A DNA stretch of 64,000 nucleotides from Moniliella sp. 'wahieum' (GCA_003971905.1 RSEE01000004.1:186001-250000); one strand, 5' to 3'; shown: positions 2,360 through 59,345, numbered from the stretch's first letter. The notes: a model not told the origin generated them from the sequence alone. Numbers and translations: made by a program.

Positions 2360-3260
2360 CTTAAAGCTTTTGATGCTTGATGCTTGAGGCTTCAGGCCTG
2401 AGGCAAGCCCCCCGAGGCCTGAGGCTCAGGCCTGAAGAACGCGTAGCGCGTAGCGCTTCCTTGCATACTGTGCGCATTCATATATTCTCACTACGTGCGC
2501 GTGAACGTTCACGCGTTCACGCCGTTCACGCGCTCTCAGATGTCAGATGTCAGATCTGTTCGATGATCTTAGATCTTAGATCTCACGTGCTCAGGCGTCC
2601 CAGCCATGCGGTGCGAGAGGGCCAGCATCATGCATCATGCATCATGCATCATGTGACATGGCGCGTCAGCGCGTCAGCGCTCAGCGCGCGAGTATAGCTG
2701 CCGTCGTTACCTGGTACATATTCATACCTCTCAGAGATCGCATCAATCTCAGATCTCGAAGGTTCAGTGCTTTGAGTACCAAACGTACCAACGCCGAGTA
2801 TAGTACTGAGTTGCTCAGGACGGATTTATACTGAGTCTTCTCACATCTGAGAACTACTCTCAGTGTACAGAGTACTGTGAGTTACTGAGAGAACTGGACT
2901 GGCATGCATTATCCGCCGGGGGAAGCAATGATGGGATGGCCACAGCGTTCGATTAGTATCCTCTTTCAATATTCCATGTCAAGTCAAAACAGAAGCTTCA
3001 ACCCTTGAAACCCTTCATGCTCTCAAGTTCAGCCTGGCCAATTCCAGGTATAGAGCTGATCGATGATCGATGTCGAGAGTATCGATCGATTATCAAAAGC
3101 GAGATCCAATTTCCAATGAAGGAACGCTACCAGCGTGAGTTTAGATGGCCGCAAACGTTTTAAGCTGTTACATGTTACGTGCTTTATATTGTCCAACGTC
3201 CAATCCCCTGTAACTAGGTAACTAGGTTGCTAGTTACTAGTTACTTAGTTTATACGTATA
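2360..3260. repeat. Cluster of 7-bp-period palindromic heptamer arrays (A-xy-y'x'-T-N)n
   Basis: AACGTT-C-ACGCGT 2504-2516; AGATCT-T-AGATCT-C 2571-2584; (ATGCATC)x3 2630-2650; also AGGCCT, AGTACT, ATCGAT, ACATGT and ACTAGT units. Confidence 0.9.
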
Positions 3261-3836
3261 GGCCGCGAGTTGCTTTGTGTATGTGCCCCCTTCCACCCCC
3301 CAATGGGGAGTCTACTCTGCGATTTATCGATTATCGCACTCACTGATCCGGAGGACGGGATTCAATTTATCAATGCGGCACCCTTACCCACACACTCAAG
3401 AGTGCCCCCTTTGTGTTTTCGACATCCATGATGCATGAGGCGGCGAGTGAGTATGCATGAGTGTCTGTGGGCACGTATATGGTGTACGAGAAGGGCCTAG
3501 GAGCTTGGCCGTTTGCCGATGCTCGCATGTTGCCCTCTCGCATGGGCATGCTCGCTCTATGTCTCTGCAATGCATATGGTTCCCGGTTATCGAGGTAATG
3601 ATCATCCTCTTGAAGCGCTGAGCTTCAGCAGCCTGAATGCTTTTTGATGGGGCAATGCACGATACCTGTCTAACCTCTCCATGAGCCATGAGCCTATGAG
3701 CTCCATAACTTGCGGAGGGAGGAGAATGGAGGATGTGTGTGACGCCACACTGGTGTAGTGGTGCAGCTGGCCCAAGTCCGGAACCTTCTGGTTCGTTCCG
3801 TATAATATTCCTTCCTGGCGGGCAGGAAAATATTAT

Positions 3837-4166
3837 CAAGAGCCGTTTTTCCCCCTGGTTTTGACGACGCGAGGATACTACGGCACCAAGACGATGGGCA
3901 AGTTGTTTGCGCATTGGAAGGAGTTGGCTACTAAGTCTCAGTGAAAATGGTTCCTCGCTCGGATGTCAACCACGTTCCTCCGTGTCCACACGCGCTTCCT
4001 AGGGTACGGGACCGGATGGCGTGAGCCGGAGGGTCCTGACATCCTGGCGATCCCCCTGGTTCCTTGACCTTAGTGGCGCCCCCAAGTAACCCCCGCAACA
4101 TGAACGGTTAGGTTTAGACGTAGCGTTCCCCCTATCCCAGCCTTAAGCTCTGCCAATGAATGGACG
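3837..4166 (+). mobile_element. 3' fragment (copy 1) of an RLE-type (CRE/R2-like group) non-LTR retrotransposon
   Basis: Diverged direct repeat of ~8119-8462. Translates EPFFPLVLTTRGYYGTKTMGKLFAHWKELATKSQ*KWFLARMSTTFLRVHTRFLG, matching the F-x-P-x-V...G tail of a restriction-like endonuclease domain. Confidence 0.72.
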
Positions 4167-4227
4167 TGGTCTAGCCTCCGTAGCTCATGTGCAATGCAAT
4201 ACACTACCAACTGTCTGCTCTCTGGTC

Positions 4228-4390
4228 TGTAACAATATGGTTATAAGGAGAGGTACGGGAGCTTTGAGAAGGGTAGGGCCTTATACAGCCGAGGGAACCG
4301 CGGAGCCGAGGGAGCTTCCCGGCGGGTAAGAGGGGTGATGCAGATGCCTATCCCACGCAGGAAGGGCGTGATTGGGGCATTGCCCCAACA
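4228..4390 (-). mobile_element. Possible short solo LTR
   Basis: Begins TGT and ends ACA, with TATAA on the minus strand. The flanking 5-mers TGGTC/TGGCT are only an imperfect TSD, and no second copy was seen in the window. Confidence 0.22.
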
Positions 4391-4459
4391 TGGCTTTTCA
4401 TTTTTGCATCTCCTCGCTGTTTCCTTCCGACAGAGGATCCAAAGGAGCAGAACCTGCTT

Positions 4460-5565
4460 GTGCTACGCGTTAAGCCATAACGCGTAACGCGGAACGTTTA
4501 ACGCTTAGGCTAAGCGCTAACATGTAACAGACATCCGGTGATCGGATCCGCTTTCCCTAGTAACTAGTAACTAGTAACAGGTGACCAGTGACGCGGTGAC
4601 GCCTGATGCATGATGCAGACGCGGGACTAGTGACCCTAGTGACCAGTGAGTGACTTGCGATGTGTGGCCCCACGTGGTCGGGACCGCGGGACCGGCGATA
4701 AATTCACGATTTGATCGACGAGAAGCTGAGGCGCAGAGGCTGCCGGGCAAGGCCAACCCTTCATGGCGTGGAGCCAGACATTTGATTGGTCCGAATTGTG
4801 TTCCGGACATTTGAGATGTTGTGGCTTGACGTAGTGGGCCAGAGTGGACCAGGTGAGGGCGTTGCGGAATTTGCCTCCTCTGGCAAGTACCAAGTTAGCG
4901 GGTAGCATCAATGTCAAAGAGCGTTGGCCCAATGCGCTACCGATGTTTGGCGCCTACGTATGGGCCAGAGCCCCCACGGTGATGCGTGCGAGCTCTGTCT
5001 GTCATCCGTGTCGCCGTGTCACCGGTCACCGGTCACCTGTCACCAAGTACACAGACCGGGACAGCACCCAGAACATAAACCACGTGGTACAATATAACCC
5101 AAAGTAACCGGTGACTACTGAGTACTGAGTACGAGTACTGATTAAATTACTGATTAATGATTAAGGCCTTAGGTCGATTAAGCTTCAGCTTTAAGGATTA
5201 ACGATTCGTGACGCGTGACGCGTGTTTCGGGACAAGCAGGGTGCGTCAGGCGTGACGCATGGCTGGTCTCAGATGTGGTTCACCCGGTGAGCGCTCAGCC
5301 TGAGCGCTGAGCTCAGGCGGAACGGTTACATGCAAGTCATGCACTGCAGATGCATCATGCATTATGCATCACCTGCATCACACATCCTACGCCCCATGCA
5401 TTCTCCACACCATACCCAACATGCATCACACATCAGCCGCCCCAACCTATCTGACCGCAACGCTGGGCCTCCGTCGCCACGGATGGAGCTGAGGAAGGGA
5501 GCAGATGGTAGGGCCAGCCATCAGGCCTCAGGCCTGACCTCAGGCCTCAGGCCCAGGCCTCAGGA
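4460..5565. repeat. Dense cluster of palindromic heptamer arrays upstream of the SSUH2-like gene
   Basis: (ACTAGTA)n 4557-4576; (ACCGGTC)x2 5021-5034; ACCGGT-G-ACTACT-G-AGTACT-G 5107-5127; ATTAAT-G 5153; ACGCGT-G-ACGCGT ~5210; ATGCAT-C-ATGCAT-T-ATGCAT-C 5350-5370; AGGCCT-C-AGGCCT 5523-5535. Confidence 0.9.
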
Positions 5566-5707
5566 GTGCCGCGGCTGGGCCCCTCATCTTCTGTGGGCAA
5601 CTCGAGGCGATCGATGGGCATGGTTGTCTGGTTATAATCCGGCCATTCTGCTTCCAGCAGCGTTCGCACCCAACTTTGGCCCTTCACTTCTGTCAGCTGC
5701 GGCCAGC

Positions 5708-7702
5708 ATGCAAGCCCAGGCCTACCCGGCGCCCTGCGCCCGCGCAACCACTTCCGCTCCCCCAGCGACAGCGATCCAAGCGGCCCTCCTACTCCCTCCG
5801 ACCACACCACGCCCTTCTACCTGCAGCGCAAGCCCCTCGTTCAGTCCAGCGATGCCCAGCCTGGTCGCGTTCTTATGCCCCAGACGCTATTGCGTTTCGC
5901 GGAAAGAGCCCTGACGAGCAGCAAATTGAACACCTGCGCACTATGCTCGCCCACATTGCTCCTGACGGTACGTGTCCCTATGACCCTTACCCGGTCACGC
6001 CTTTACAAAATTCTGACAACGTCCGCCTTCTGCCCATAGGCCACCAAGCGACGTCATACAATTATTACCCAAACGACCCCACGGACGTAACCGTGCCGGG
6101 TACGAACGCCGCGAGTGGAAGTTACGCCAGCCGCAACGCGTCTACGCCCTCGGTCGAGGCGTGCAACGCTGATGTCGAGGTCATCGAGACACTAGACGAG
6201 CGGGCAGCGGGCAAACCTCTGGTGCTGACTCCCATCAGCTCGTCCATCATGGGCGACGGAAGCGATGCCAAAGTTGTTTCCAACCTTTCTGCCGTCGATG
6301 TACAGTTCCTCGTGTCCAACCAAGAGCCCATCCCGCCCTCGTCGGAGGAGTTACGTGACCGGATTGTTAAGCAGCATCGGTTCCTCAGTCAGCGCATCGA
6401 GCCTGGTGCTAAGGCACGCAGCCGCACGAGAACCCACCTGCCGTTGACAAGGCCATCCGGGCTCGATTCAAGCCTATTGGCCCCGAAGAGGAGCAAGCCC
6501 GCCTCGCCGCCCTCCAGGTGCAAGTTGACAGCGTGATGGAACAGAGCGTTGTGCGTGGCGTCGTTGTCCTCGAGAAGCGGGAGGCTGTGTGGAAGCCGTT
6601 GGGCTCTGAGCCACCTGCTGACCGGGTGGGTATGGTAGAGACGGTGGAGCGAGCACCTGCTCTACCTTCTGCCTGGCTTTTGCCTCTGGATGCTACTTCG
6701 CACATTGCCACCGGCAAAGCCAAGAGCAAGAAGACGTTCCGTTTGCCGGAGTTTGAGGCCATGGCCGGTTGCTCTTCGTGCAACGCCAAGGGAAAGACCA
6801 TGTGCCCTCTTTGCAAGGATGCGGAGCCGGATGAATGTTTCTGGTGCGAGGGCACCGGCATCCGGAAGCGCAAGACGTGCGACAACTGCCACGGTCGCAA
6901 GATCCACGCTTGCCTAAGGTGCGACGCGCGGGGTACGATCGATTGCAACGAGTGTGGTGGTAATGGCCAAGTGTATGTGGGTGCGTTTGTCGACGTCAAG
7001 TTCCGCACCATCTCTCTTCCTCCCATTGCGGTCAAGGACTTGGTTTGCCCTGGTACCGGTCGGCCCCCGGTCACAGCCGAGGAGGTGGCCGAATGCTCTA
7101 AGCTGAAGATGGCCCAGACGATTTCCGAACTGTCCCGCGTCCAAGCTACCAAGGGATCGCCCTCGGTACCGGTATTGGCTCGCTGCGTGTGGCACAAGAG
7201 TGTTAAGCGCATTGTCTCGGTCACCCGCCCGGCTACCGTCGAGATGCCGGGACAGAAGAAGTTGGGTTTGAGGCACAAAGCGCATCAAGTGGTTGTGGAG
7301 GGAGATACCCACCGCTTCCTTGTCCCCAGCGACAAGACAGCTCCGATCGTTGAGATCACAGCCACGGCAGCCGCTGCTGCTGTTGCTGCCAATTCTCGGC
7401 CCGGCCCCTATTCCAGTAGTAGTATCTACATGGGTGATACTACGCCTTCTACTTATTCGACGGTGCCCACTCCGTCCACCTCCGTGGCCCACTTGCAAGC
7501 GCTGGGCGCCAGGCCGATGTTGTGCCTTCCGTTCCCGCCGTTCCAGATGCCTACACATCCCTTGAGGTGGGGAGTTACGTTCCGGCCCCCACTTCAACTG
7601 CGACAGTACAGGCCTATTAAGCCAATTACTGTTGCTGTGGTACCCCTGCTGCGCTCACATACGCACAAATGGGGCCACGCCATTTGCATAATGTTTCGTT
7701 AA
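5708..7702 (+). CDS. SSUH2-like protein with DnaJ-type CxxCxGxG zinc-finger repeats (no J domain seen); frameshifted
   Basis: CSSCNAKG, CPLC, CFWCEGTG, CDNCHGRK, CLRCDARG, CNECGGNG in ORF 6518-7702, preceded by E-K-R...W-K-P...P-S-A-W as in the SSUH2 family. Confidence 0.6.
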
Positions 7703-7887: not shown

Positions 7888-8466
7888 ACAGAGCGCACCG
7901 ACTAGCCTACCGCGTCATGGGGCCCGGAGCACTGGGAGGACCAGGAATGGAAGTGGACCACACGCTACGAGACAGGGAACGCAGGAGGCGCAGAGCGCGT
8001 ACCGGAGAGTGGTGCACGAGAGCACCGCGACGCCTTTGGAACGCCGGGAGAAGGAGCTCTGCTTCGGCTGCTGGAACAAGCAGAATGCGAGAAGAACGCC
8101 AAGTACCACGGACGCACCCAAGAGCCGTTTCCCCCTTGGTTTTGACGACGCGAGGATACTAGCACCAAGACAACGGGCAAGATGCTTGGGCATTGGCAGG
8201 ATTTGACTACTGATTAGTGACTCTCAATGGAAATGGTTCCTCGCTCTCGGATGTCTATACCACGTTCATCCGTATCCACACGTGCTACCTCGGTATGGGG
8301 ACGGATGGAGTGCACCAGAGGGTCCTGATATCCTGGCGATTCCTCTGGTTCCTTAAGCGGTGTTGACGCTATACTAAGCAGCACACGCAAGATGAACGGG
8401 TCGGTTTATAGGCGTATAGCGTTTCCCTGTCCCAGCCTTGAGCTCTGTCAATGATACGGATGCAAT
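7888..8466 (+). mobile_element. 5'-truncated, degenerate RLE-type non-LTR retrotransposon (copy 2)
   Basis: Reconstructed across indels: TERTDYRVMGPGALGGPGMEVDHT...LLEQAECEKNAKYHGRTQEPF-PLVLTTRG. This gives the R-x-D...D...K-x-x-K-Y...F-x-P-x-V motifs of the PD-(D/E)xK restriction-like endonuclease. The 3' ~340 bp is homologous to 3837-4166. Confidence 0.8.
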
Positions 8467-8479: not shown

Positions 8480-8529
8480 GTGTTGATCGATGATCATCCA
8501 TTCCTTTATTGCCGATCATCGATCAACAC
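8480..8529. repeat. Perfect 16-bp inverted repeat with an 18-nt spacer
   Basis: GTGTTGATCGATGATC (8480-8495) is the exact reverse complement of GATCATCGATCAACAC (8514-8529). Confidence 0.92.
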
Positions 8530-11079
8530 ACGTAATACACATGTGAGACGCGTTTGATGAGCTGGATGCTGGGTTTGCTCCTGGCTGTTTTTCTTTCTCT
8601 CCCCACAGAGCATGAAACTTCTTCTTCACCAATAACTACATTTTGTCTCCGTATGTGTGTGTCTCTGTGTGCTTTTGTTTGGGAGACCAGATAGCAATCG
8701 GTTCCCGTATTACCCAGTACTAAACGACAGTGCTCGGTATACTCACGGTTAAATAGTCAAAACACACGACAGTGAACTCATGTGCCTCGGCAGTGACTGT
8801 CACACATGTCACAGTCGAGGCTAAGGCGAGGGAGACCAGAAGCGGGACTAGGCCATGGGGTGTAGCAATCGTTCGTGGGGAAGAAGCAAGAACAGAGGAC
8901 ATGGTGCGAAGTGGAAGTAACAGGGAAGGAGCGAGATGCTCGAGACGAAGAAATCGGAAATGGGAGCGAGATCAGCCAAACGATGACAGTGATCGACGTA
9001 CTGTTTTGTTCATTTTTAATTGCATGTGGCAGCTCGCGATTGTGCACATAAAAAATGGAGACTGTAACAGTCGCGGGCGATGCGAGTGGGGCCAAGTACC
9101 AAGAGAAGCAAATGATGCACTGCTAGGGGAAAGGAGAACCGGATCGGCGAAGAGCGGTGAGAAAAATTTACCTGGTTATAGCCAAGGGGACCGTGGCAGA
9201 GAGAGTAAATTAAATACCTGCTTCCTTCTTGAAAAGGAATGTCTGAATCCTCCTGCACGGTAACCGGTAAGGCCTAAGGCGTGACATATGCAAGGAATGC
9301 CCCGAATCCCCAATGGAGCTTGGGATACGATACCAATGTCACTATCCCACAGTGTGTGATGTGCCACAAGTCGGCCAGAACGTCTCGCCAAGGCCTGCTG
9401 TTGGCCAGGCAAAACGCTTCTTGTATATTACGTCTATTTTATCATGTCTCACAAAATGACGATCTCTCTTGTGTCTGACACAGCTTCATGGCGGTTTTAT
9501 AGCTGCACTCACGTCACGCGTCACTGTCTGGTCTTCTCGCAATGGGTCTCAGCTCAGCCTCCGTTACATGTTACATATCGATTGATGCTTTGACCACACC
9601 GATAGAGTCGGAAATGAAGGAGGCCAAAAAGTTGGGCTCCGGAAGTGTGTGTAGAATGCCCGGAGGAAAGGACTGCTGGCACGGGGCGGACCCGCCAGGG
9701 CCTCGCTGGGGTTTGTGGTGTAAAATCCCTTAGGAGACGGTAGGTCGACTCACGGTAGTTTCGGGCTCGGCTAGTTATAGTGGATCCGAGCGGAGCTAGG
9801 GAACGAGAGGCAATTGGGTGCGAAGCTGAAGGGCTACTGCACATGTGGGGAGGCTGCGTGTTCTCCGACTTCGGCCGTAGTAGTAACACACGTGTCTGAA
9901 GCCTCCGGAACTGAGGGATGGGTAGTCGGAGGCAGTACGGGTCAAACACTGCCTGAGCTGAGACTGGACAGGGACGGCTGTCCGCGTCGCTGGAACGGAA
10001 CCCACGCGAGGAGCTGTTGCTACGGGGAATCTACGCAGCTGAAGGATGGCTCGGGCGACTGGACGGATGGAGAGCTGGAGGACGAGGGCGGAAGAGGAGA
10101 TGGGAGCTAAGTGGAAAGGAGGCTGCCTGTACTGAATCAATTGGCTGGAAAACGTGCAGGAACTGGACAAGGTAGGTGGGAAGGGACGAGAATGGAAGGT
10201 GAAGGAAATGAGCCCCACCTACCAGAGGTACAGGCTAGACCAAAACGGAAAACGGAGACACAATAGGGGGTGTAGAATAAAGGAAGGCAAGTTAAAAGAG
10301 GGATTGGAAAGGAAATAAGTATTAAGTGGTGACGAGGCGACAGTCGTCGCAATGATAGTGAAAGCTTGGTGTCCTTATTTAGGCCATCTGACTGTCCCCT
10401 CGGGCCACCGTACCTCATTTAACTAACCATCATTATCACACCAGTGGGTTGGACGTCGGAACGCGCTCCACTGGGCATGTACAGAGCAGCAGGCCTTCGC
10501 TTGGCTCGGAACATCTCGGCTCCAACGCAGCCCCTAAAACAGCTTCCAAGCGCGAGCTGTGTGAGCAGGCGCGGATTGCGAAAACGGCAACCATTAATCG
10601 CCAGTTTTGCACAGGCCAGCGAGATCGTCCGCTGTCTCGCCATCGGCCGGCAATCGATAATCCGATCAACGTACGGCCTAACCCATCGTTAAAGTTATTG
10701 TCTGTCGACATTCCAGTGTGTTAGTACTATGTATGCGACAGTGCACCGTGTTGAGCTGGGTGGTTGGACGAGGTACACAGCAAACTATTCAAGGCTGTCG
10801 CTGCTGGACACAGCAAACGAGAGATGTGCGAATGACTACATCCGACAAAACCGTTTCAGGGGACTGAACAGATGCATACAGGGGAGAGACGGCGAAGGAA
10901 AGGGCATGAGCAAAGAACCGGATGAAGAGAGAGACGAAGGAGGTACCAGCCAATAGGCCAGACCTACAGGATAGGACAAGAGGGCCCGGTAGCGAGAGAT
11001 ACAAAAGGGCGAGAGGATCCAGCTTCACAAAAGGGGGGGAGACAGGAAGGAGCGTATCCAGTCTGCGCCGTATGAGTGC

Positions 11080-12884: not shown

Positions 12885-15800
12885 GATGGGTGATGCATGA
12901 TGCATCCAAGCTTTCAAGCGGCAACTTCGTGGCCGCAGGCCTCTCAGGATCTCAGGCCCTCAGCGCTCAGCCGCTGATCCTAGTGGATCTGAGATCTGAC
13001 ATGTGCAGGCGGCAAGTGCGCGCAGATGCGCGCTGGCTGAGCGCAGCGGGTAGTCGACTGCGTCACGCGCCATTTCCGCCCACCTGTGGTGCTCGTTTGC
13101 AGGCAGTATGGCTGGTGCTTGGACAGTGCTTGGGCGGACGCTGTGTGACCGGCGGGACGCGTGACATGGACATGCGGCTGGTATCGATCGTATCGGTGAC
13201 ATGAGACCAGTGACCGGTGACCTGCGCCTCAGATAGTCCCTGCAGGTCCCTGCTCGCGTGGGGGCTTGGGTCATATGCATCACATGACACTGCTCTCGTG
13301 GCTCAGCACCCCCACACCACAGCCCCATGCAACCACACCATGTATCATTCATCGCCCGCATCCTAGCGACGCGTGAAGCGCGACGCCAGCACTCGGCCAA
13401 ATGATGCACAGACATGATGCGTGATGTGTGATGCATGATGTGCCGCCCTGACGCATGATGTTTGTTGCATAATGTGTGATGTCATATAGGTGACTAGGTG
13501 ACTGCGCCAAGCCAGCCGCACAATTTGAGATTCTGATATCCGAGGTTCTCAGAATTCACCATTCTGATGCTCGGCGTCAGGCTGAGGCCCTCAGCCTGAG
13601 GCCGGAGGCTAGATACTGGCCAAGCCCCAGGCTTGACAAAGTAATACTCGCCGCTGAATTTCAGTTCACTCAGATCTCAGAACCACACAGCTGTGCAGAG
13701 TGATGTGTGACGCGTGACGAACGTACGAGTGACAGAACCGATTGAGAACGTTTGAGGCGTTGTCGTGTTGTCTGCTGTCCAAACCCTTTGGTACTTTTGA
13801 TCCCCACCGGGGGCTTGTCGTTTCGCTTCTGAAAACGGAAACGGCATTGTGTCATCCTCTGCCTGCCCCCCGCCCCCCCCAGATCCCCGTGGCTTCCGCT
13901 GTACTTGCCATGTTCTCCATGTGCATTGGCATGATTGATAGTCCTCGCCCACAACAGATGCACAGGGAGAGACCCCACGATCGCACGTCGAACGTAGTGA
14001 AATCCGCGTTACACCCTGGACTGATAGTGCAGAGTACTGATATAACGCGTAACGATAGCAGATGCATACGTTGGACACTGTTGAAAAAACCCCAAGTGGC
14101 AAGACTGGACAAGAGCCTGTCACATGTCCGCTGTCCGCGTTCAGCGCCACCAGCCACACCAGCAACACATATGAGCGAAACAGTATAAGCTACTCAGATA
14201 TCGATAACCGTCAAGCTTCAAGCTTCAAGCTTCAAGCTTCAAATTCGTCAAACCGAGGACACGTACGATCGAAAACGTAGACGGTAGCTTTTACCGGTTA
14301 CCCACCTGATAAAACCTGCCGGCTTTAACGAAAACAGGCACGTTGGCTTGGTGCCCCAGCATACCCCCGCTTGGCAACTGTGGTGTCTGTATATAGTCAC
14401 CGTAGTGTGATCGGTAAGCGCTAAAACGCGTCGGTCAGCGGTGTATATGGTAGTTTTTCGCACTGTATAATGTCCACGGCGCCAGTGAACCCCACGCCGC
14501 AGCCACTCCCACTCTGTACGCCCATCGTGCATCGTCTGTAGAGCCCACATTGTGCGCTACCCATTGCAAACCTTATCGTCCTCCGCCGGCGCCTCTGCCC
14601 CCTATTTAATACTATGGACGGGTGCGAGAGAGCCTTCTTCCATGTGGCTCAGCGCTCGGTTGCTCATACGCTCTCTCAGATACTCACAGAATCCATATGG
14701 TCTTTTTTGGCCCCACCTTCTCTCCTGCGTGCTTACAATTGCTGAACGCACGCCGCCGCTGTGGGGACCGCGAGCGAGCAAGCTCTGCTCTGCAACGAAA
14801 AGCCGCACACCAAGTTGCGAGCGGCCAACAGTTCGTTGTCGCGGTAGTGCGCGTAGCGTTCAACCATTCTGTACCAGTATTATACTAAGGCAGTGTATAC
14901 TTGGCAGGCGGGGGGTTGATGCGGTTGATGCATGTGACGCGTTGACGCAGTTGTTGCGCTAGGGCTAAATGCTGGGCTGATGCACTGATGGCGCTGATGC
15001 ATGATGCCCAACGCATATGTTCTGTTTGATCGATGATCGATGACCGGGATGCGGTACCGTATCGACGTATCGACGACCGGCTGATCATGCATCATGCATT
15101 GTGCATCCTGAGCTATTCAACGTTCAACCATCCACCGTTTGATAATCTCGTATCCGAACTATGCACTGCTCCCAGAGCCGGATCACCGGATCACCACCGC
15201 CTCCATCGAAATCGGCGGCGATGGGACGCGGGATGAATGTGATGAACAAGTGCGGACGATCGATGACGATAGGTGGACTGTCCCAGTCCTCTGTCGGAGA
15301 GCACCACCAGCCGAGTGCAAGCCATTTGACAGAAAAACTTGCGAATGAGCCGGTGACCGTGACTAGGTGACTAGTGCCCGATGATCTGGTGATGCAGGTG
15401 ATATACCCCGCGTGGCATAGCATCTTGGAGGGCTGGGGGCTGCCTGCGGCGCTCAGTCTGAAGTTCAAGCTTAAAGCTTGAAGTTTTAACGTTTAACTGA
15501 ACGCATCTCGGGTCTCCGGCCACTGGCGTCACCGCGTCACCGGGCGCTGCGGCCAGGGGCATACGTACGTTGGAGCGGTGGCGCCGTGCGGATTAGAGGC
15601 GGGTGGGTTGTGGCGCTGGCAAGGCCCGAGCAGACTGGCTGAGGCCGAGCCGCCCGGTGCGACCCCCGCTGACCCCCCGGGACAGAGAGCGCGAATGTCG
15701 CAAGCGTAACCGCTGACCGCTGATCGATGAGGCAGTGAGAACAGTGCCGGATGTCACCAGTCACGCGTCACGCGTCACGAGTCACTAGCTTCAGCGCACG
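12885..15800. repeat. Extended cluster of palindromic heptamer arrays in the divergent acyltransferase/GT2 intergenic region
   Basis: AGATCT-G-ACATGT ~12992; (AAGCTTC)x4 14213-14240; ATCGAT-G-ATCGAT-G 15029-15042; AAGCTT-A-AAGCTT-G-AAGTTT-T-AACGTT-T 15467-15494; (ACGCGTC)n ~15763-15776. Confidence 0.9.
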
Positions 15801-34124: not shown

Positions 34125-34300
34125 AAGCGACGTCACGCGTCACGCGTTACATGTCACACGTCGCACGTCACGTGCCGAGGCGCCACCCAATGAGTAACTA
34201 GTAAGCGCCGTAACATGTAACAAGCCGCCAAAGCAACTCCTTCCCTCGAGATCATGCGACCCCTCCGTTGGGATCCTTGTTCGCATGTCATGCATGTCAC
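34125..34300. repeat. Palindromic heptamer arrays upstream of eIF4A
   Basis: ACGCGT-C-ACGCGT-T-ACATGT-C-ACACGT-C-GCACGT-C 34135-34169; TA-ACTAGT-AA ~34195; TA-ACATGT-AA ~34211. Confidence 0.85.
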
Positions 34301-41293: not shown

Positions 41294-41572
41294 GGTGGGG
41301 CCTGTGAGGACGGGACGAGAGAGGAGGATGAGAAGAGGCAGCCGAAGCAGAATGGGGTGGTGGTGGGAGAGAAGGGGGTGGACAGTACCGTCGGGGGTCT
41401 CGGGGGTTGGGGCGGGAATGTGTGGGTTTTAGGTTGGTGTTAGTACGGTGTATGATGCATGATGCATGATATATTGAGGCAAGATGCTTGCCGCCTGCAC
41501 TGCACCCTGTGCCCAGAGTACGTGCAGCGGCCGAGCCCCGACAGCTCCTGGCGGCGCAGCAGCCAGCAGCAG

Positions 41573-41605
41573 GCCGCCGCTTAGCCGCCGCTTAGCCGCC
41601 GCTTA
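41573..41605. repeat. 11-bp tandem repeat x3
   Basis: GCCGCCGCTTA x3; each junction forms GCTTAGC. Confidence 0.88.
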
Positions 41606-42298
41606 GCAGCCGGACCGGGGTTCGTGGGTCTTTGGGTGTGGCGACAGGTGGGGAGGACGACCAGGGGTCTATAATCGATCTAACATCCATCCCTATCAGC
41701 CCTCAAATCCAACGCTCAACGTCGCTCACCGTCAAGATTCAATCCCACGTATAACAGTGGCAACAGCAAACAAGCGACCTGGATTGCTTCTCCCTCTTCG
41801 CACACACATTTAAAGGTGCAGAGCGCAGACTACATATACATACCACCCGCTGTTTCGCCTACTTATCTGGAGCCACGATGCGCAGGCATCAGCAGTGCCC
41901 TGCCTTCCCAGCACCATCCTCCCGGCATTACCAGCTACCTAGGTCCTACTTACTCCCTATGCTGCGTTTTCTCGCTTCAATGCAAGTCCCTCCTCAGTGT
42001 GGAGCAAGCGACGGCGACGCGCGGACGCGGGACGGCTCACGCGCTCACGTGTGACATGTGACATGTGATGCATGGCCAAATTACAATCATGATTTTGATG
42101 TCTCGGATCGTCACAGACATGGCCTGCTCTCCACGCCACAATCTGCCCCACACTCTCCCCATGAGTGCATGAGCCACTTCCTCAGCCTCCCAGCCCATTC
42201 CGCCTGGCGCATTCCGCGCTGAGCACCGCGCACAGACACGTTGCAGCAACCCGAATATAACCCGCCCCTCCATCACCATCTCCGCCTCCGTTGGCTTC

Positions 42299-43429: not shown

Positions 43430-44480
43430 CTAGGTTGAGGCCTGAGGCTCAATTCAACCCACAGGCGTGGGCTTCCCTCTGGCCTGATCGATCTGATCGC
43501 CTATACTTTTCATGATGCAGGACGCCCTGAGCTGGCAGTCACACGATGACATTGCTTGATTGCCATTTCTGTCGGTATATCCCCCGTGGCCCATAGGTAC
43601 TCCGCCGAGGTTTAAGACAAAGGCATCCAGTCTTCAGAGGCTAAAAGCGGAGAGGCGTCTGAACGCCTGAATGAGGGACAGGAACCAGCCACTATAGATT
43701 CAGGCGTGAGCGCCTGCTCCAGGCCTCGGGCCCATAGGAGACCTGGAATATAAATGAGCTTAATGAGCGACGCGGCATGGTCTGTGGAGAACTCAGACTC
43801 AGATCTCAGATGATACACATCAGGTACTCAGTACTCAGCCCGTTATCATGCGCATGTGCATGACTTGCACATTACTCACTCTCTCTATAGTGAGACTCTA
43901 GTGACTAGTGATGCATGGTGCATGACGCGTGACGTTAGATTATCTCGACATCGGCCGCTAGCAAAAGAGTTGACAGGGGTTGGCTCTGCGCCCACGCACC
44001 TGTAGGTAACGCAGGAGTGCTGTGGGAAGATAGTGGTCGATGGGGTCAAACGAAGCTGGGGGAGGGGAACCTTCGGCATCTGGTCGCCAGCTCAAGCAGC
44101 ACAAGCTCAGGCCCAGGCACTACTGTCACATATAATGTCACGCGTCACGCGTCACGCGGCATTACACTATGGATCACCAAGTCACGGAAAGTCACGCATG
44201 TCACATCGCGTCACCGATCTCAGCGCCTCAGTAACTAGTAAGGACCAGGTCTTGCAGCGTGAGAAGTAGGTTCCGTTGAACGTTGGAACGCGGATGAATA
44301 TTGAATCGATGAATACAATCCAAGAGTGGGGAGCGGGTATCTCGGTGTACTCGATCGTGGGAGTTGTGCATGATCGTGTGCAGATTCCCGGTTGGAGACG
44401 AGAGACCAGCCAGGGTCGTCGCGCACGCGTCACACATGAGCGACCTCTGAGATCTGAGATTGGGCGGCTCAGCGCAGAGC
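43430..44480. repeat. Palindromic heptamer arrays upstream of GH32
   Basis: TGAGGCCTGAGG ~43437; AGATCT-C-AGAT 43801; AGTACT-C ~43830; TCTAGT-G-ACTAGT-G-ATGCAT-G-GTGCAT-G-ACGCGT-G 43897-43931; (ACGCGTC)n ~44140-44158. Confidence 0.9.
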
Positions 44481-44561
44481 GGCTGCAGCCAGGTGCAGGC
44501 ATCGTTACAAAACTGGCGCCATGCCGGTTCCGAAATAGCGCCGCCGGTTAAATTTTAAAGT

Positions 44562-48886: not shown

Positions 48887-50177
48887 CGGGGCGGAGGGAG
48901 AGCGATGGTCCCTAGATCCTCCCACAGGCCGTGGCGGGCGCCGATGAGAAGAAACCGAGCGTGTGCTGGATGCGGCGCTGGAAGATGGATGCCGCAGAGG
49001 CGGGGGGTGAGGGGGAGCTTGTTGAGCGCCTAGGGGGGTGTGAGCAAAAAAAAACACACACACACACACAAGTCAGTTGAATCGGGAGGGGGTCAAGGAC
49101 CAGAGCGCATCAGCGCTGGGTAGCAGCTGAAGGTGCAACGTACATGCAAGCCGGTCCGCATGCGTTCCAGGTGGTGGGCTAGGTGGCATGGGACTTGGGC
49201 GTGGGCGAAGAGGAGACGCGGGGCCGCTTGGTGTGGGGGCGGGGGGGGGCGGCCGAGGCGGGGCGACGGGCTGGGGCAGGGAGGGGGGCGGGGAGGCGGC
49301 TGACGCTGAGGGCGAGGACGTGGGGCGGCGGACGGATGCGATGGAAGCTGGGCAAGGGGGCCTCCATGGGGGGGGGTGAGGGGGTGGAAGAGGAGGAGAT
49401 GCGAGGTGCTGATGAGACGCAGCGGGTGAGGCTGGGTTAGATGGGGGCGGGCGAGGCTGCGCTGGTGCCTGATGCATGACAGGCAGCTGGGCCAGAGACA
49501 CGGGGTGGTGATCGCAGGCATCCACCGCATCCCACTGCGGCTGCTGGCTGCGATGGAGATCTGAGGGCGCTGGGCTGCAGAGGCACAGACGCGCTGCTGC
49601 TCGCCCATCACCCGCTGCTCAGGCTCAGTACTCAGTCTGAGTATCAGTGGCTCTGTGGCCATTTCCTTTCCGTAGCCAGGGCCCACCGCACCCAGAACAC
49701 CGTCGGCCGTCGGCGGCCCCGCTGCGACCGAATGGGGCAAGTGCTCAGCACGCCCTCCCGCTCGCAGGTCATGTGACCATGAGACAGCGACCAGCGACCC
49801 CCCCGGCCCGACGGTGACTGGCCCGCTGACATGGACATGTACATGTGACACATGTGACAAGCCAGGTGACTCTAGTGACTTGGGCCGGTGCGGTGCTGCA
49901 GCCTGGTTCCTGCTGCGGCTGTCAGCGGTCAGCGGTCACCGTCATCCAGCGCCGCTTTACCCCCCGCAGCCGGCATGCTTATGTCAGCGCCGCCGCCCCC
50001 CGCTCCACTGGGCTCGGCTGGAGGACTACTTGCCTCCCTGCAGGCCGCAGCTGGGCAGACGGCAGGGGGGCAGCGCCGCAGCGCACGCGAGCGCCTGGCA
50101 TATATATATCCGCCTCCTTTGCCTCCTCCTCCGCCTTCCTCCGCCTCTGCTCCACCCACCCTGCGCTCTCGATCGGC

Positions 50178-52260: not shown

Positions 52261-55055
52261 TTACTTGTCGTCCGTATGCGTCTTTTGCTGGATCACCACC
52301 CTAGTGCGTTTGAGTGTCTGTCAGCTTCTTCTCCAGCGGCCCCGCCGAGTCGGGCAGATTGCCCATCCGGTCCAGCGGTACAGGCTGGGCGGAACCAAAG
52401 CGAGTCAGTCAGTCAGTCACAACAAATGGTACAGGGAGGCTAGTTGCAGGGGGGGGAGGCACATACAGGCAGGACCAACAGACTCTTGCGTGGCTGGCCC
52501 GCAGCCCCCCGATCGCGTGCTTGGTGGTGGTGTGCTGGTGGTGCGGGGCTGGCTGCAGCGGTACGGCAGCTGTCCCAGATCCGTCCCCGCACCCCAAACA
52601 ACTCTGGCGCCCAGTGCACCGCCTTGACTTGCCCCGTCTCAGGGTGAGCGGGCACCGACTTTCCCCTGCGCCCCGACGGAGCCGACGCCGGCGCTCCCCA
52701 CCTCATCCTCGCACCACTGTGCCGCCTGTCGATCGGGCGCCGAGTCGACCCAGCCTCGACCTCAGTCTCGACCTCAGTCTCGGTTCGGTCTCGGTCTCGG
52801 TCTCGGGCTCCGTCTCCGCCTCCGCCTCCAGGTCCGACACGGGAAAGAGCAGCAGGACCCAGCGTCTGTGCCTCGGGTTGGGCAGCGGCTTGGTCCTGGC
52901 TCGCGCATCCAAGCGCGGGACGGTGGCCGAGGACGATGGCAGCCGGTCTCGGTCCAAGGCCACTGCCACCGGACGAAACTCGAGGTGCACAGCCACCTTC
53001 TCGTTGCGACGCTTGTTGGCATTGGTGAGGCGGAGGAGCTCGGTAGTGGTCAGGGGAAGCAAGCCCCTGCGCACGCCCTTGGACCGCACATGGGAAGCAG
53101 ACGCTGGCTGGCCTTGGTACTGCGGTGACTTTGGCCCCGCGTTCCCACCCCCCCCGTCTAGGCCCACTGCGAATTCGCACGGCCCGGACGGGACGCGAAC
53201 AGGCTCCTGTCTCCCCGGCTGCCGCGGTGTGTCCAGCCCCCTCGCATCGTTGGACCGAAGGCTGGGCGAGGCAGAGGCCGAGTGGGGTACCGGTTTCTTT
53301 CTTTGCCTTCTTTTCCTTTGCCCTCGTGGCCAGTTTTTTCCATGCGTTCCGTATCACTGGGCCCGATCGAGGAGACTCCGAGGCAGGAAGGAGGACATGG
53401 AGGAGGCCATGGAACACACCGCGCCAGACGTAGGCCGGCCAAGCCTGGTCCAGCCAGACCAAGACCAAGGGGAGCAGCGTCCTTCGCTCCGGTTTCCAAG
53501 GTTGCCTTGGCTGCTTGTTCAGCCTGCCATTTCAGCCCGGCCACACGGATGATCGTCTTGCCCGATCCACAACCGCTTTCCGAGGTGGATGCAAGGAGGG
53601 AAAGCGTGTGCACCTTGATCGGCATTGTGCGTGACTGCGAGACGGGACCTTGGGCCTGCGGCGTGCTGGATGAGGCCCGGAGGGACGAAGAAAGGTGGCC
53701 ACGTTGGGCGCGCCGCGAAGCGAGTGATAGATGGGCACGGGCGCGCTGGGTACGCCGGCGAAGCGAATTGCTGGAACGCAGTGCCTCTGCCTCGCTTGAC
53801 GCTGGCGATTGAGCTCTTGGTTCGGGGGGAGGGGAAACGGCGTTGCTTGGGGCCAGTCCGGCCAGTAGCGGAGAATCAGAAGAACGGCCATCTTGCCACT
53901 CAGCTTCCGACTCAGTCGGGCTGGGACGGAGCGGACTCGTCACTTGGCAGGTCTTTTGGCGACGAGCACACAGGTCCGGCGCCGGATATCTCCTGCTGAT
54001 CTTGGGGGGGACAGGAAGAGGGGTCAATGGGGGCCAGCGCAGGCGTACGAGGAATTGGAATTTGCTTCCTCCATCGAAACGAGCGACATAGGGTTCTCGG
54101 TTGATACCTCCCCGGGGCTCTGGGATGCTGGTTCCAACGACTTTGACAAGGCTCCCTCTGCAGAGGTGAAGTGGCACGTCTCCAATGGAGACCAAGGAAC
54201 AGCGCAAGACTGCCAACCGGGTGGATTCCTCCTCATCCTCGTTGGTCATCAGCACGGCTTCATCCGCGCCCATCTCTACGGGGCTTGGCACCGGAGGGGT
54301 CGCTACTGTGATTGGCTCAGGGCTGGGAATGACACCGGCTCTACTAGAGCCGCACGTGCACCCGCTGAGGATGAGTCTACCCGCCCTGTCTGGGCAGTGG
54401 AAGCATGAGCTTCTTGGCCTCGGGCATGGGACGTGCGCGCGACCGAACGGGTGGGGCAGACTTGCTTGGTACCACGCTGGGTTCAGTGGGGTTGCGCAGT
54501 CCGGTCGCTGGTTTGGGCCGGGGCAGACGACTGCTACCCGGTTCCACTGGAGGCAGCGAAGTGGAAATGCAAACGGTTTGGGTTGCCATCCTGCTCGGTT
54601 CTGCCCCTGCGCCTGGTCTCGCCAAAGAAGCTGAGCCAACGGGGGCGGCCGAACCACGGTACTCATGCGACGGAGCCCTAGGCCAGCGGGGCGGATGGGG
54701 CCTAAGTTGACGACGCAGGCAGCGGGGTCGGGCGGGAGGCGAGAGATGATTTGGTGGACAGAGTTCCGGTGGCGGGGGGAGATCCGGCATTGAGATGGAC
54801 CGCGGGGGCGCTGGGCGCCGGTGCAGTGGCTGCGGGGCGGGGGAGATTGAGAGCTGGGCTAGAGCGGCGGAGAACAGTAGTAGAGAGGGCAGGCACCCTT
54901 GAGTTGGGTACCGACGCCGAGGAAGAACGCATGGTGGGCCTGCTGCTGCGCGCTGCCGCACTGCTACCCGTGGATTGGAGGGAAGGCAGTGCCGAATCGT
55001 GGGCGGACGCATGAGAAGGTGTTGGCGGGGGTCGGGCCGGGAGGGTAGGGGCCAT
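52261..55055 (-). CDS. Large, mostly disordered hypothetical protein; frameshifted
   Basis: Continuous Pro/Ser-rich ORF segments with conserved-looking C-terminal blocks ELLRLTNANKRRN, VKAVHW and LDRMGNL; stop at 52261-52263. Confidence 0.5.
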
Positions 55056-56135: not shown

Positions 56136-57977
56136 TCATTGGCGTTGGACCAGGGGAGTATGCTCATCATGATCCATCCCCTGGATCTCAAGCTCCGATG
56201 GGGGTATCGGCGAAGTCTGCATTGCCATCGTCGATGCAGTGGTGGGATCAGCAAGTGGGATGTAGGCCTCAGCTGCGGTAGCAGGCGTGTAGGCATAGGA
56301 TAGGAATATGATGTTCTCCCGGGGGGTACGTGTATCCCCCAGACACGGTGGAAGTGCGTCCGTCTGACGGGTAGAATGTAGTGTAGTCTGAAGCAGGAGC
56401 TGTGCTGTTGCCTACAGCAGAGGAAGCGGCGGCTGCCTCGGCCGCCTCTCGCGCCCGCTGCTCTTGAAGCTCAGGCGGGTCCAGGTGAGAATAGTCCGGG
56501 TAATGCAACGGGTCACTCGTCGCGTCTGGAGCGGATGCGTCAGCCCCCGTAGATGTACGATGGCCCAAATTTCTTCCGCCCCCAGCGGCCCCATCAACAT
56601 CGTTGTCGATATCATGGTCCGTGTAGAGGTCAGCCAGGGCAGCAGTGTGCATTTCGTGTGCGCCCTCGCCCCCAAGGGATCAAACGAAGGCCAGTGCCCA
56701 CCCGCTTCTTCATTAAACGGGTCCATCCGATCCCCAGACTTTGGTCGATTTCCAAAACACATAAAGTACGCTGACCCCGTCCGGGCCTTACGGCGACGGA
56801 GGAGGCAAGCCAGTAGCAAAAGGAGTGTCAAAGCCGCTACGCCACCAACCACCCCCCCCACCCACCGCCCTCCAACCACACCACCACTTGTCCCTCCATC
56901 ATGGTGCGATGAGGCCAAGCCGCCCGGACTACCGGTTTGAGTAACCATCACGACAGTAGTACCGGTGACGGGGATCAAGGAGCCGTCGCTGTTCGTACTT
57001 GTTGAGGTGAATAAGCTGAGAAAACTGGAAGTACGAGTCGAAGGTGAGGCATTACTAGCGCTCGAGCTGATCGTGGGTGAGGTTGACGAAGAAGTTGGGC
57101 CATCGGAGCTAGTGCTCTCTTTATTCGAGCTCGAGCTGATGCTTTGCTGTGTTGAAGTTGGGTCGTGCTCGGGACCTGGGAGGACGAATGCGTGAACGGT
57201 TGGGTGGATGAGGCTTGACTGGACGATTGCACCGAAGGCTGGGTCGAAGACTGTTGAGTTGAGGACTGGGTAGAAGCCTGAGTTGAGGGAGAGGTTGAGG
57301 GGGAGATGGAAGGAGAGGCGGAAGGAGAGGTGGAAGGCGAGGTAGAAGGAGAGGTAGAAGGAGAGGTGGAGGGAGAGGTAGAAGGAGAGGTGGAAGGAGA
57401 GGTAGAAGGAGAGGTGGAAGGTGAAGTGGAAGGCGATGTAGAAGGAGAGACGGAATCAGGCGTGGAAGGAGAAGTGGACGGTATGGTTGAGGGTGGGACT
57501 GAAGGTGAAGTTGATGGGGTCGAAGATGTATCATCGGGCGTAGTGGAGGGGGAAGGAGTATTAGACACAGAATGATCGGCCGAAGAAGGATGGTCCGTAC
57601 TGGGGGTATGGGTAGACGTGGGATCGGGGGCAGGCTCGCTGTTGACGGAGGCGTTTTTTGTGTTTTTCACCTCCGCTTGGAGACACTGGCTGGCTGTGGG
57701 TGTCGTCTCCACTACCAGATGAACTGGCCTGCCGAGCAAAGTTGGAAGCTGAAGTGTGCGCCTGCGCCTCTGCCCCTCGAACTACATTTGGGCGTGAGGT
57801 GGGAACTGTGCACACCGAGAGGATCGTCAGCCGCTAAGCCCATAGGACTTCACTATAGTCTCATCGTGTCATGGAGAGCCCAAAAGATTGGGGGGCACTA
57901 TAATGGGGTGAGGGAGACGAACACGTACACAGTGGGGCGGCACGCGCAGCAGGGAGTAGCTGATTGGCACTGCGCAT
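56136..57977 (-). CDS. Ser/Thr-rich single-pass membrane protein (Mid2/Wsc/mucin-like cell-surface sensor)
   Basis: (STSP)n ectodomain, TM VGGVVGGVAALTLLLLLACLL followed by RRRK, then a cytoplasmic tail. The start is uncertain. Confidence 0.7.
57305..57450. repeat. 12-bp coding tandem repeat (STSP)n
   Basis: About 10 degenerate copies of GGAAGGAGAGGT/AGAAGGAGAGGT. Confidence 0.9.
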
Positions 57978-58592
57978 GGCGAAAGGACCTGCGAACAGCA
58001 GAAGGAGAGCAGGTGGTGGTAGTAGTACGACAGAGATGCAAGACAAGACAAGGCATTGTGTGGCGGCGGTGGCGGCGGTGGCGGATGTGGGAGTTGTGCC
58101 GCACGCCACATATCGATGATCGATGACCGTCTCCTGAGTAACCTAACAAAGCATATATATCCGTCGTGCAGGCCGTCGAGGTGTCTCAATGCCACCCACC
58201 GATACCCGATATGCCCTCTATTCTCGATTCTCTTTCCGCTCCACCCGCCCACCAGCTGTCTGATCCCCGTTTGAGAGCTGAATAAGTTGCTCACATTGGT
58301 ACAGCTCCTTCTTCAAGCTTCACCAGTGACTATGTTCATCCCTCTCGCCTTGGCCACGGAGAGAGAGCACATACGGAAGGCAGAAGACTATATATGTCTC
58401 TTCTCGATCGGAGTCGCGTTTTATAAATCTCGCGTTGTCTCGAGTCGTTTCGTCAGGCCGCCTCAGGTTCATTTTCCCATCGCTCTCGCAACAATTCCCA
58501 CTGACTGTGCTGCGGCGGGAGATATGTGGATCCCATCATTGTGGCCTGTACTGTAGACGAGAGGATACCCGTCCGAATGTACACTTCCATTT

Positions 58593-58683
58593 GGGTTCGT
58601 GGTGTAGTGGTATCATGCCTCTTTAGGGTGCTGTTCTTTAGCACGCGTAGAGGTGGTCCTCGGTTCGATCCCGGGCGGACCCC
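58593..58683 (+). tRNA. tRNA-Pro(AGG) with a 19-nt canonical intron (58629-58647)
   Basis: Acceptor GGGTTCG/CGGACCC; D arm TGGTGTAGTGGTATCAT; anticodon stem CCTCT/AGAGG with AGG at 58625-58627; T loop GGTTCGATCC; Pol III terminator TTTTT at 58684-58688. Confidence 0.95.
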
Positions 58684-59345
58684 TTTTTCCTCTTTCTTTT
58701 TCTATTGGCCTAGGAAGTACCAAGTCACTGGGCCAATTGCGAATGCTGAGGCGCTGAGGGCGCGGGAGACGGGGGCGAAGAGGGCGGGATGTGTATAGAA
58801 GAGCTGACCACGGTGGCAAGAGATCGCACAGAGAGCATGGGGCTGTGCAGCGTGTTGGGTGTGCTGATTTGGTGATGGCGATGATGATGGGCGATGCACA
58901 CGTGACATGTGACAGGTGACATGTGGGATGGGGGTGGATGACCGATCGGATTGGTGAGATGGCGATGGGGTGGCATGCAACAGGCATGACATGCATGACA
59001 TGGGTGAGTGGGTATGACATCAGCTGGCTTAGAAACAGCGCCGGGGGGGCACCGGGGCAGAGGAAGGCGAGCCACTGGCCCAGCTGCGCACAGCTGCCCC
59101 TGGGGGTGCTGTGTGCTGGTGCGGCTGTGTGCTGCTGTGTGCTGCCTGTGGCCCGCTGCTCGCAAGACGAGGCTGCGAAAGGCTTGGCGAGCGAAGCCAT
59201 GGGGCCCATCAGCCATCGCCCCCTCACCGGTCCCTGCCCAGCATCGCGTGTCTGTGTGTGTCGGTGCGTCTGCCCTGCGCATGGCCTCGCCTCGTCTCCT
59301 TCCCCCCCACCTTCCTTCCACCGTCTTCCCACCACCCCACCCCCC

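Follow-up and report, generated by a model that had tools for sequence, protein, structure and literature searches.

The locus

The window analyzed here, meaning the whole stretch of DNA examined, comprises 64,000 nucleotides of the Moniliella sp. 'wahieum' assembly (GCA_003971905.1, RSEE01000004.1:186001-250000). It is nuclear, intron-bearing eukaryotic DNA with a G+C content of 51-68% across the 64 kb. Between its genes lie units of 7 bp, each consisting of a T-N-A triplet (TNA) and a 4-bp palindromic core (pal4, written xyy'x' with primes for complements); a further TNA follows, so that a hexamer palindrome with the outer bases A and T (A..T) surrounds each core. These arrays are real and occur far above chance, and the units are located in the non-coding DNA between genes. 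They are best read as scars of a recurrent, sequence-specific insertion process, not as functional elements.

The genes of the window were identified by a Pfam scan of 152 of its 222 open reading frames (ORFs) of at least 110 aa, the shorter ORFs overlapping on the same stretches being left out. They are ordinary housekeeping genes, namely those of an eIF4A-like DEAD-box helicase, p24/GOLD, WD40 and RING proteins, an HMG box protein, an Arp2/3 p16 subunit and a P-type Ca-ATPase, with a fragment of GH32. The best named relative of the eIF4A-like ORF is from Tilletiaria anomala (64%), and those of the ATPase ORF come from T. anomala (45%), Violaceomyces (44%) and Testicularia (41%), with another protein at 66%. 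A protein atlas returned only P-type ATPase clusters, dominated by bacteria. Judged by their sequences, the window proteins are nearest to Ustilaginomycotina, which points to a smut-related basidiomycete with no close sequenced relative in the collections compared.

Specificity of the T-N-A pattern

The decamer TNA-pal4-TNA occurs 102 times in the window, against 7.1 expected under an order-3 Markov model. The same model places 4-bp palindromes between other triplets at chance (ANT 5 vs. 5.8, CNG 27 vs. 21.8, GNC 28 vs. 23.2). With dinucleotide shuffles within 1-kb bins as the control, the 40 bins of low 3-periodicity contain 91 decamers where 4.6 are expected, and the 24 coding-rich bins contain 11 where 2.5 are expected; 15 fall in the bin 5001-6000. 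The core itself is almost unrestricted: 15 of the 16 possible 4-bp palindromes occur inside TNA-core-TNA, the sole absentee being TATA. A first-pass annotation, made by a model from the sequence alone, had already counted 13 of the 16 by eye and concluded that nearly every core is used, and all 13 hexamers that it quoted lie where it placed them, as does its array ATGCAT-C-ATGCAT-T-ATGCAT-C at 5350-5370.

The spacing is as exact as the triplet. An A..T hexamer palindrome is followed by a second one at offset 7 in 31 cases (0.48 expected), and pairs at offsets 6 and 8-11, or with outer bases other than A..T, stay at chance level. Where the same hexamer palindrome recurs at offset 7 (n = 23), its outer bases are A..T in every case. 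Perfect period-7 arrays of at least two copies number 53 (3.5 expected, order-1 Markov), 31 of them containing an A..T hexamer palindrome, and no period other than 7 is affected. Phased TNA chains of at least three units occur 38 times at period 7 (2.8 expected) and at chance at periods 5, 6, 8, 9 and 10. The first-pass annotation had proposed checking its pattern against other triplet centers, against periods 6 and 8 and by TNA autocorrelation. Within the window all three comparisons bear it out; the autocorrelation, run for TSA, has its maxima at lags 7 (2.38), 14 (1.73) and 21 (1.80).

Anatomy of the unit

The architecture of the unit was derived from 71 arrays, each a perfect period-7 run holding TNA-pal4-TNA with equal N. 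Their lengths are 10 bp (3 arrays), 12 (16), 13 (21), 14 (8), 15 (6), 16 (4), 17 (3), 18 (1), 19 (3), 20 (2), 22 (2), 29 (1) and 32 bp (1), so that 23 exceed 14 bp. The commonest class, 12-13 bp (37 of 71), contains fewer than two full copies and is therefore not a clean tandem duplication, because a duplicated heptamer gives at least 14 periodic bases. Among the sixteen 12-mers, eight have the frame TNAxy-y'x'-TNAxy (u-P-u, u being the repeated 5-mer), seven its mirror image, and one is symmetric. The commonest form is thus a 5-base direct repeat around the inverted complement of its own last two bases. This is the anatomy predicted by the formula of the first-pass annotation, in which TNAxy is converted into TNAxy-y'x'-TNAxy with a gain of 7 bp.

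When the window is scanned without bias for any 5-mer u that precedes the reverse complement of its own bases 4 and 5 and then a second u (u-P2-u), 140 matches result against 7.8 expected naively. T stands at the first and A at the third position of u in 96 of them, and the remaining 44 are mostly second palindromes within ATGCATC or ATCGATG arrays. Conversely, when direct repeats of the form TNAxy-ab-TNAxy are collected, ab equals y'x' in 97 of 122 (chance, 1 in 16), and nine other triplet classes give 0-5. In the pattern NBxy + y'x'B' + NBxy, B is A in 107 cases, C in 3, G in 2 and T in none, and T precedes 97 of the 107; both T and A are therefore required. Of 66 isolated decamers, 55 have the same middle base in both triplets and 6 have complementary ones. 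Because N is copied rather than complemented, the triplet is a direct and not an inverted duplication, and inverted duplication was rejected as an explanation. The first-pass annotation had described this base as a variable spacer. It is indeed not fixed, yet in phased chains most triplets have C or G there (93 of 133), and, as the isolated decamers indicate, neighbors usually share the same base.

Only one core length is used. Between TNA triplets of equal N, palindromes of L = 4 occur 83 times (1.9 expected), and other lengths are not enriched (L = 0, 35 vs. 40.3; L = 2, 10 vs. 7.2; L = 6, 0 vs. 0.7; L = 8, 0 vs. 0.1), nor are two adjacent 4-bp palindromes (0 vs. 0.3). Seven of 15 period-8 arrays consist of TNA, a 4-bp palindrome and one additional base, and would look like a junction variant. 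The flank profile is symmetric about N, with T depleted at -1 (8 of 75) and A depleted at +1 (7 of 75). At 2440-2456 and 26221-26233, CGCGTAG and CTACGCG units carry TAG instead of T-N-A in the same build of direct repeat and inverted dinucleotide; these are rare exceptions to the rule of T and A.

The arrays could also be ordinary microsatellites, in which slippage expands heptamers and prefers foldable units, that is, a hexamer palindrome plus one base forming a 5-bp stem with a TNA triloop. Perfect multi-copy arrays of up to 4.6 copies do exist, in the excess at period 7 given above; lengths above the commonest class rise roughly by 7 (19-22, 29, 32), and neighboring palindromic cores are mostly identical (17 vs. 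3). As single-stranded DNA, multi-unit arrays do fold into 5-bp stems with T-N-A triloops at -3.5 to -7.3 kcal/mol, the (TCAAGCT) array reaching z = -4.3, and several metagenome contigs (L049, L062, L061 and L006) carry many heptamer arrays of other kinds. This explanation is nevertheless unlikely. More than half of the arrays belong to the 12-13 bp class, short of two copies and fixed in frame (15 of the 16 12-mers are u-P-u or its mirror). No fold forms in the 23-nt stretch that contains a minimal 13-mer (-0.2 kcal/mol, z = +1.3), and 7 of 8 stretches fall within about 1.3 standard deviations of their shuffles. Because minimal units do not fold, hairpin stability cannot explain the origin of the unit, although that of longer arrays may help slippage. 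Moreover, stability would prefer C..G or G..C outer pairs, whereas A..T alone is enriched, and slippage leaves unexplained both the requirement for T and A (96 of 140 scan matches; B = A in 107 vs. 3, 2 and 0) and the free N.

Decay and history of the units

Alongside the perfect units stands a graded series of imperfect ones. Cores are palindromic in 51 of 95 units of phased chains (chance, 1 in 16), and the others are mostly one substitution away from a palindrome. With respect to the seven identity constraints of the 12-mer, 97 sites are perfect (0.45 expected), 119 have one constraint broken (10.45) and 259 have two (125.6). The excess over expectation is alike in each class (97, about 108 and about 133). 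Such a series is what continual formation of new units and their erosion by mutation would leave, and not what maintained sites would show.

Two paralogous segments of ~330 bp, at 3837-4159 (copy A) and 8119-8454 (copy B), lie in intergenic DNA amid heptamer units and are 79% identical. They have no terminal inverted repeats, and the scanned ORF over copy A (3399-3965, minus strand) has no Pfam match; an old duplication, a dispersed repeat and an RNA gene are candidates for their nature. The copies differ by a single 7-bp gap, which falls on a TNA, with TGATTAGTGAC in copy B opposite TAAG in copy A. The corresponding units, tgaCTAC tgaTTAG tga at 8204-8220 on the plus strand, include 7 bases that the paralogous copy lacks at 3929-3945. 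The pair supplies a single example of the 7-bp indel expected at TNA. CGGTAACCGGTAAGGCCTAAGGCG at 9258-9284 is most simply explained by two independent one-sided events that share one TAA, one of them using the GG on its left and the other the GG on its right. Cases of this kind are rare.

These data also bear on whether the units are selected cis-elements, either phased sites of a symmetric DNA-binding protein that contacts T-N-A every 7 bp, or structures of promoters or terminators. The confinement to non-coding intergenic DNA, the exact geometry and the symmetric requirement for T and A agree with such a role, and chains such as AGCT, TGCT, GGCT, GGCC resemble compensatory drift between palindromes. 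However, with 15 of 16 cores and a free N there is no common recognition sequence besides T and A; the commonest unit is asymmetric (u-P-u), and a 7-bp spacing does not fit the helical repeat. Perfect, one-off and two-off forms are in similar excess, as under neutral decay, and a unit of one paralogous copy is missing in the other. Selected sites are thus a rather improbable explanation, and the phased binding sites that the first-pass annotation had listed as one of three candidates fit poorly, since any core works.

That the arrays stem from a sequencing or assembly artefact is scarcely credible. The pattern is concentrated in non-coding bins (91 decamers vs. 11 in coding-rich ones), substitutional decay is visible, the paralogous copies differ as by an indel, and a few units of the same build are found in the unrelated metagenome assemblies L051 and L064. 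We know of no basecalling error that gives 7-bp insertions specific to T and A with an inverted dinucleotide.

Distribution of arrays in the window

Apart from the units in copy B of the paralogous segments, the arrays cataloged here have no defined strand. At 2370-2435 a chain of tgaTGCT (twice), tgaGGCT, tcaGGCC and tga is followed by TCAGGCCTGA units; its cores change by single substitutions between palindromes. The cluster at 2502-2688 contains TGAACGTTCA, the period-8 array CGTTCACG (TCA+CGCG+T), 2.9 copies of (TCAGATG) running into GATC, 2.7 copies of (GATCTTA), 4.1 copies of (GCATCAT) over 29 bp, and a further period-8 array, GCGCGTCA (TCA+GCGC+G). Between 3057 and 3250 lie (TGATCGA) with 2.3 copies, TGTTACATGTTAC, and period-8 GTAACTAG followed by period-7 ACTAGTT. 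The region 4471-4644 is phased by TAA (taaGCCA taaCGCG taa, then taaGCGC taaCATG taa) and also carries 3.1 copies of (CTAGTAA), TGATGCATGATGCA and the period-9 array CTAGTGACC.

The densest stretch, 5000-5564, comprises three copies of (GTCACCG), TGAGCGCTCAGC, the ATGCAT-C/T-ATGCAT array and 6.7 copies of (TCAGGCC). Within it, a TNA-phased run at 5105-5224 passes through the cores CCGG, GTAC, TTAA, GGCC, AGCT and CGCG. Minimal 12- and 13-mers are represented by TGATCGATGATC and CGATCATCGATCA at 8484-8525, and the array at 9258-9284 described above is accompanied by CGTCACGCGTCAC and GTTACATGTTACAT in the region up to 9576. A further group at 12891-13719 consists of TGATGCATGATGCAT, CTCAGCGCTCAGC, GATCTGAGATCTGA, GTGACCGGTGACC, the chain tgaTGCG tgaTGTG tgaTGCA, period-8 TAGGTGAC, CTCAGATCTCAGA and GTGACGCGTGACG. 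At 14043-14424, TAACGCGTAACG, TTACCGGTTACC and the chain tgaTCGG taaGCGC taa occur with 4.6 copies of (TCAAGCT), which at 32 bp is the longest perfect array. The region 14995-15785 includes TGATGCATGATGC, (TGATCGA) with 2.4 copies, (ATCATGC) with 2.3, TTCAACGTTCAAC and (GTCACGC) with 2.9, together with the period-8 arrays CCGGATCA, GTGACTAG and GCGTCACC and the chain tcaAGCT taaAGCT tgaAGTT ttaACGT tta.

Several groups can be placed relative to genes. Between the eIF4A-like and p24 genes (34131-34222) lie tcaCGCG tcaCGCG ttaCATG tca, AGTAACTAGTAA and GTAACATGTAACA, and between the p24 and WD40 genes (35755-35769) lies TGTAACATGTAACAT. Upstream of the Arp2/3 p16 ORF (41452-42068) are 2.7 copies of (ATGATGC) and the chain tcaCGTG tgaCATG tgaCATG tga. 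Ahead of the GH32 ORF, the region 43436-44559 holds TGAGGCCTGAGGC, CTCAGATCTCAGAT, GTACTCAGTACTCAG, CTAGTGACTAGTGA and TGACGCGTGACG as well as (GTCACGC) with 3.1 copies, AGTAACTAGTAA again, TGAATATTGAAT, TCTGAGATCTGAGAT and TTAAATTTTAAA. Arrays at 49470-49938 comprise TGATGCATGA, CTCAGTACTCAGT, period-9 ACATGTGAC and 2.6 copies of (GTCAGCG), which is non-palindromic and carries TCA. The last group, at 58112-59002, contains ATCGATGATCGATGA, CTTCAAGCTTCA, GTGACATGTGACA and period-9 GCATGACAT.

The window has other features of note. Its longest ORF (53158-54858, minus strand, 566 aa) matches no Pfam family, and none of 8000 scored candidates is related to it. At 57288-57478, ~16 copies of the 12-bp unit GGAGAGGTGGAA lie within a long ORF region of strong 3-periodicity and are probably a low-complexity coding repeat. 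An 18-bp unit, GGGGACTGAGAGGCGGAG, is repeated 5.3 times with 97% matches at 40878-40971, and 18 consecutive C occupy 29338-29355. The sole call of the tRNA scan, a doubtful 91-nt tRNA-like gene with anticodon TTA ("tRNA-Stop") placed by ARAGORN at 58593-58683, may be spurious or a tRNA with an intron; Rfam gave no match at the gathering score anywhere in the window, including this position.

A proposed site-specific insertion process

The formula of the first-pass annotation is right, and the best reading of the pattern is an insertional mutation that resembles a footprint and grows in the manner of a microsatellite. On balance, a process that is not selected, is ongoing, site-specific and lineage-specific, and adds 7 bp at TNA is the probable source of the units. 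In each event 7 bases would be gained at a T-N-A, turning TNAxy into TNAxy-y'x'-TNAxy or producing the mirror form on the opposite side of the TNA. The TNA and two flanking bases would be duplicated directly, and the junction bases would be the inverted complement of the neighboring two. Arrays would then grow in steps of 7, whether the event recurs at the newly made TNA or ordinary slippage extends them, and point mutation would subsequently erode them.

The detailed mechanism is put forward more tentatively. We infer a hairpin intermediate, a 7-bp stagger and the nature of the enzyme from the anatomy of the unit. A perfect inverted dinucleotide without a spacer, templated by whatever sequence flanks it, is characteristic of a hairpin-capped end opened two bases off. 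Direct repeats flanking the junction are characteristic of a staggered break or of target-site duplication. P-nucleotides arising from hairpin opening are established for V(D)J joining, and the junction dinucleotide would be comparable, the hairpin DNA end having been opened two bases from its tip. In the simplest geometry, a symmetric enzyme centered on TNA would cut 7 bp apart (NN-TNA-NN); upon rejoining, one end would retain a 4-nt hairpin-derived overhang and the other would lose two bases. The TNAxy repeats with identical N would by themselves suit a duplication of either 5 or 7 bp. A symmetric 5-bp duplication with TNA at one end does not fit, because the mirror form TNAxy-N'A-TNAxy is absent; P-nucleotides to either side of such a duplication were rejected on the same ground. 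A 7-bp stagger centered on N fits, and under a symmetric model both mirror forms should be equal in number, as is seen (8 vs. 7).

The agent may be a cut-and-paste transposon with a 7-bp target duplication, both copies of which would be left upon excision, or it may be a nuclease, free-standing or domesticated. The first-pass annotation had proposed just such a nuclease or transposase cutting at NN-TNA-NN, followed by hairpin opening. Of its candidates this one fits the anatomy best, although neither a transposase domain (152 ORFs scanned) nor terminal inverted repeats (25 longest inverted-repeat pairs) were found in the window. A possible, somewhat doubtful extension is an endogenous, highly active and exact process in which a symmetric enzyme would recognize T-N-A and break the DNA 7 bp apart, the ends being rejoined through a hairpin. 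Any TNA in open non-coding DNA could then acquire 7 bases about as often as it suffers point mutation, and the process would be the main builder of intergenic DNA.

Template switching with a fixed geometry, the remaining candidate of the first-pass annotation, is a less likely source; several schemes were tried and none was workable without a pre-existing palindrome. Other origins were considered and set aside. Stop codons in all frames would leave the palindromy unexplained, and TAG is unused. Were the source a CACTA-type 3-bp duplication with P-nucleotides, TNA-TA-TNA or TN'N'A cores would be expected, and neither is enriched. The T-N4-A units and A-N-T junction predicted by hAT targets of the form nTnnnnAn are not seen.

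Several observations weigh against an insertion process of this kind. Where two perfect palindromic cores adjoin, 17 pairs share one core and only 3 combine different ones, against ~0.8 mixed pairs expected by chance on our own estimate; because mixed pairs are so few, the heterogeneity of chains is mostly due to mutation and not to independent events. The free change of core claimed by the first-pass annotation holds for the window overall and is rare between adjacent units. An x' before the first T, which would suit one-base microhomology at the junction, is found in 14 of 36 arrays of 12-13 bp and is weak evidence for it, and none of the eight 14-mers has the palindromic form of y'x'TNAxy twice. 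Hairpin-type footprints of hAT, Transib and MULE elements vary in length, unlike the single outcome here, which is a 4-bp palindrome only. Neither a transposase domain nor the PIF/Harbinger set of DDE transposase and Myb-like ORF was found among the 152 scanned ORFs of the window, and the 25 longest of its 100 inverted-repeat pairs include no element with terminal inverted repeats. To our knowledge, no eukaryotic superfamily makes a 7-bp NN-TNA-NN duplication. Finally, the non-coding part of the window, ~40 kb with 1,666 TNA sites, bears tens of young scars, and transposons would have to move at a very high rate to leave so many.

Occurrence in other genomes and implications

Metagenome contigs were scanned with a 20-base (ATGCATC) array, which gave 118 stretches totaling 393,912 bases. 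Sixty-eight of the loci are 1.5 kb or longer, and in these 95 non-seed TNA-pal4-TNA decamers stand against 73.4 expected; the contigs as a whole are thus not enriched. Across all 118 loci the T.A class of u-P2-u matches has 14 members (six from one array) against 3-13 in other classes; because this class is not set apart, the process is not universal. Contig L051 has 5 decamers (0.9 expected), clustered at 4150-5013, where units of the same build, GATAATCGATAATC, GCTCAGCGCTCA and TAAGTACTTA, lie beside a (CATCATG) array. Six loci of the same project, including L051, together hold 15 decamers against about 4.3, and these contigs may show a weaker version of the process in another organism. Arrays of GAATATT, GATGCAA, AAACGTC, CAGGATG and ATTGCAG without the TNA-palindrome rule occur in the large contigs L049 (4115-5276), L062, L061 and L006. 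Heptamer-rich genomes thus exist in other lineages too.

No description of the pattern was found in a full-text literature search, outside whose scope lay subscription journals and bioRxiv supplements. In the extended form outlined above, the process would add to eukaryotes a templated, sequence-specific type of indel formation that has been described in none of them. If the proposed process is real, the intergenic DNA of the lineage would be shaped largely by one exact, site-specific insertion reaction. The arrays would form a natural, readable record of hairpin-type break repair and would indicate an unrecognized transposon or nuclease acting with 7-bp NN-TNA-NN geometry. The process would also be a strong source of variation in promoter length, and it would continually make palindromic hexamers out of arbitrary sequence. 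Whatever the reading, repeat maskers and aligners will handle such regions badly, and 7-bp indels at TNA are to be expected as a common polymorphism.

Comparison with known systems

In bacteria, Tn10/IS10 has the hot-spot target GCTNAGC and a 9-bp duplication. It resembles the present case in a symmetric target centered on T-N-A with flanking bases and in a staggered cut, and may offer a lead; it differs in its fixed GC flanks and in having no palindromic filler. Microsatellites share head-to-tail arrays, here of up to 4.6 copies, and growth by unit steps. They differ in that the units described here are limited to TNA and a 4-bp palindrome, have a fixed frame, most commonly fall short of two copies and use period 7 only. 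Canonical footprints of Tc1/mariner elements likewise consist of a short palindromic filler of fixed length between two target copies. In contrast, the filler here mirrors the flank (55 of 66) and takes 15 of 16 sequences instead of those of fixed termini, and the target is TNA, not TA.

PIF/Harbinger elements (Tourist, mPing) share the symmetric 3-bp target T-N-A with a free middle base (PMC4561436). The arrays might accordingly be canonical footprints of such elements, in which a 3-bp target duplication is left together with two terminal bases from each side (TNA+t1t2+t2't1'+TNA), since a fixed staggered cut would give an exact 4-bp palindrome as it does in Tc1/mariner footprints. Fifteen cores, however, would demand many families with differing termini, and the first two core bases match the flank after the second TNA, or its mirror, in 55 of 66 isolated decamers. 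The bare 10-mer that is predicted is rare (3 of 71), no such element lies in the window, and PIF/Harbinger excision is described as usually precise (PMC4561436). Furthermore, 7 bp are added here where PIF/Harbinger elements duplicate 3 bp, TNATNA is not enriched (35 vs. 40.3), C and G predominate over A and T at N (93 of 133), and the window has no transposase. Canonical footprints of this type are thus very unlikely as the source.

Hairpin-forming transposons (hAT elements such as Ac/Ds, Transib/RAG and MULE) produce target duplications of 8, 5 or 9-10 bp. The insertion process proposed here differs from them in a duplication of 7 bp, or of 5 bp with the site at one end, in its single outcome and in its T-N-A target. 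No element or transposase is seen in the 64 kb, and the density is far above any footprint load known to us. The likeness lies in the product: both copies of the target duplication stay, and the junction is the inverted complement of the flank, here in 97 of 122 TNAxy repeats. According to PMC4561436, the footprints of Ac/Ds excision are likewise palindromic and derived from the flank rather than from the element, and they are taken as a sign of hairpins.

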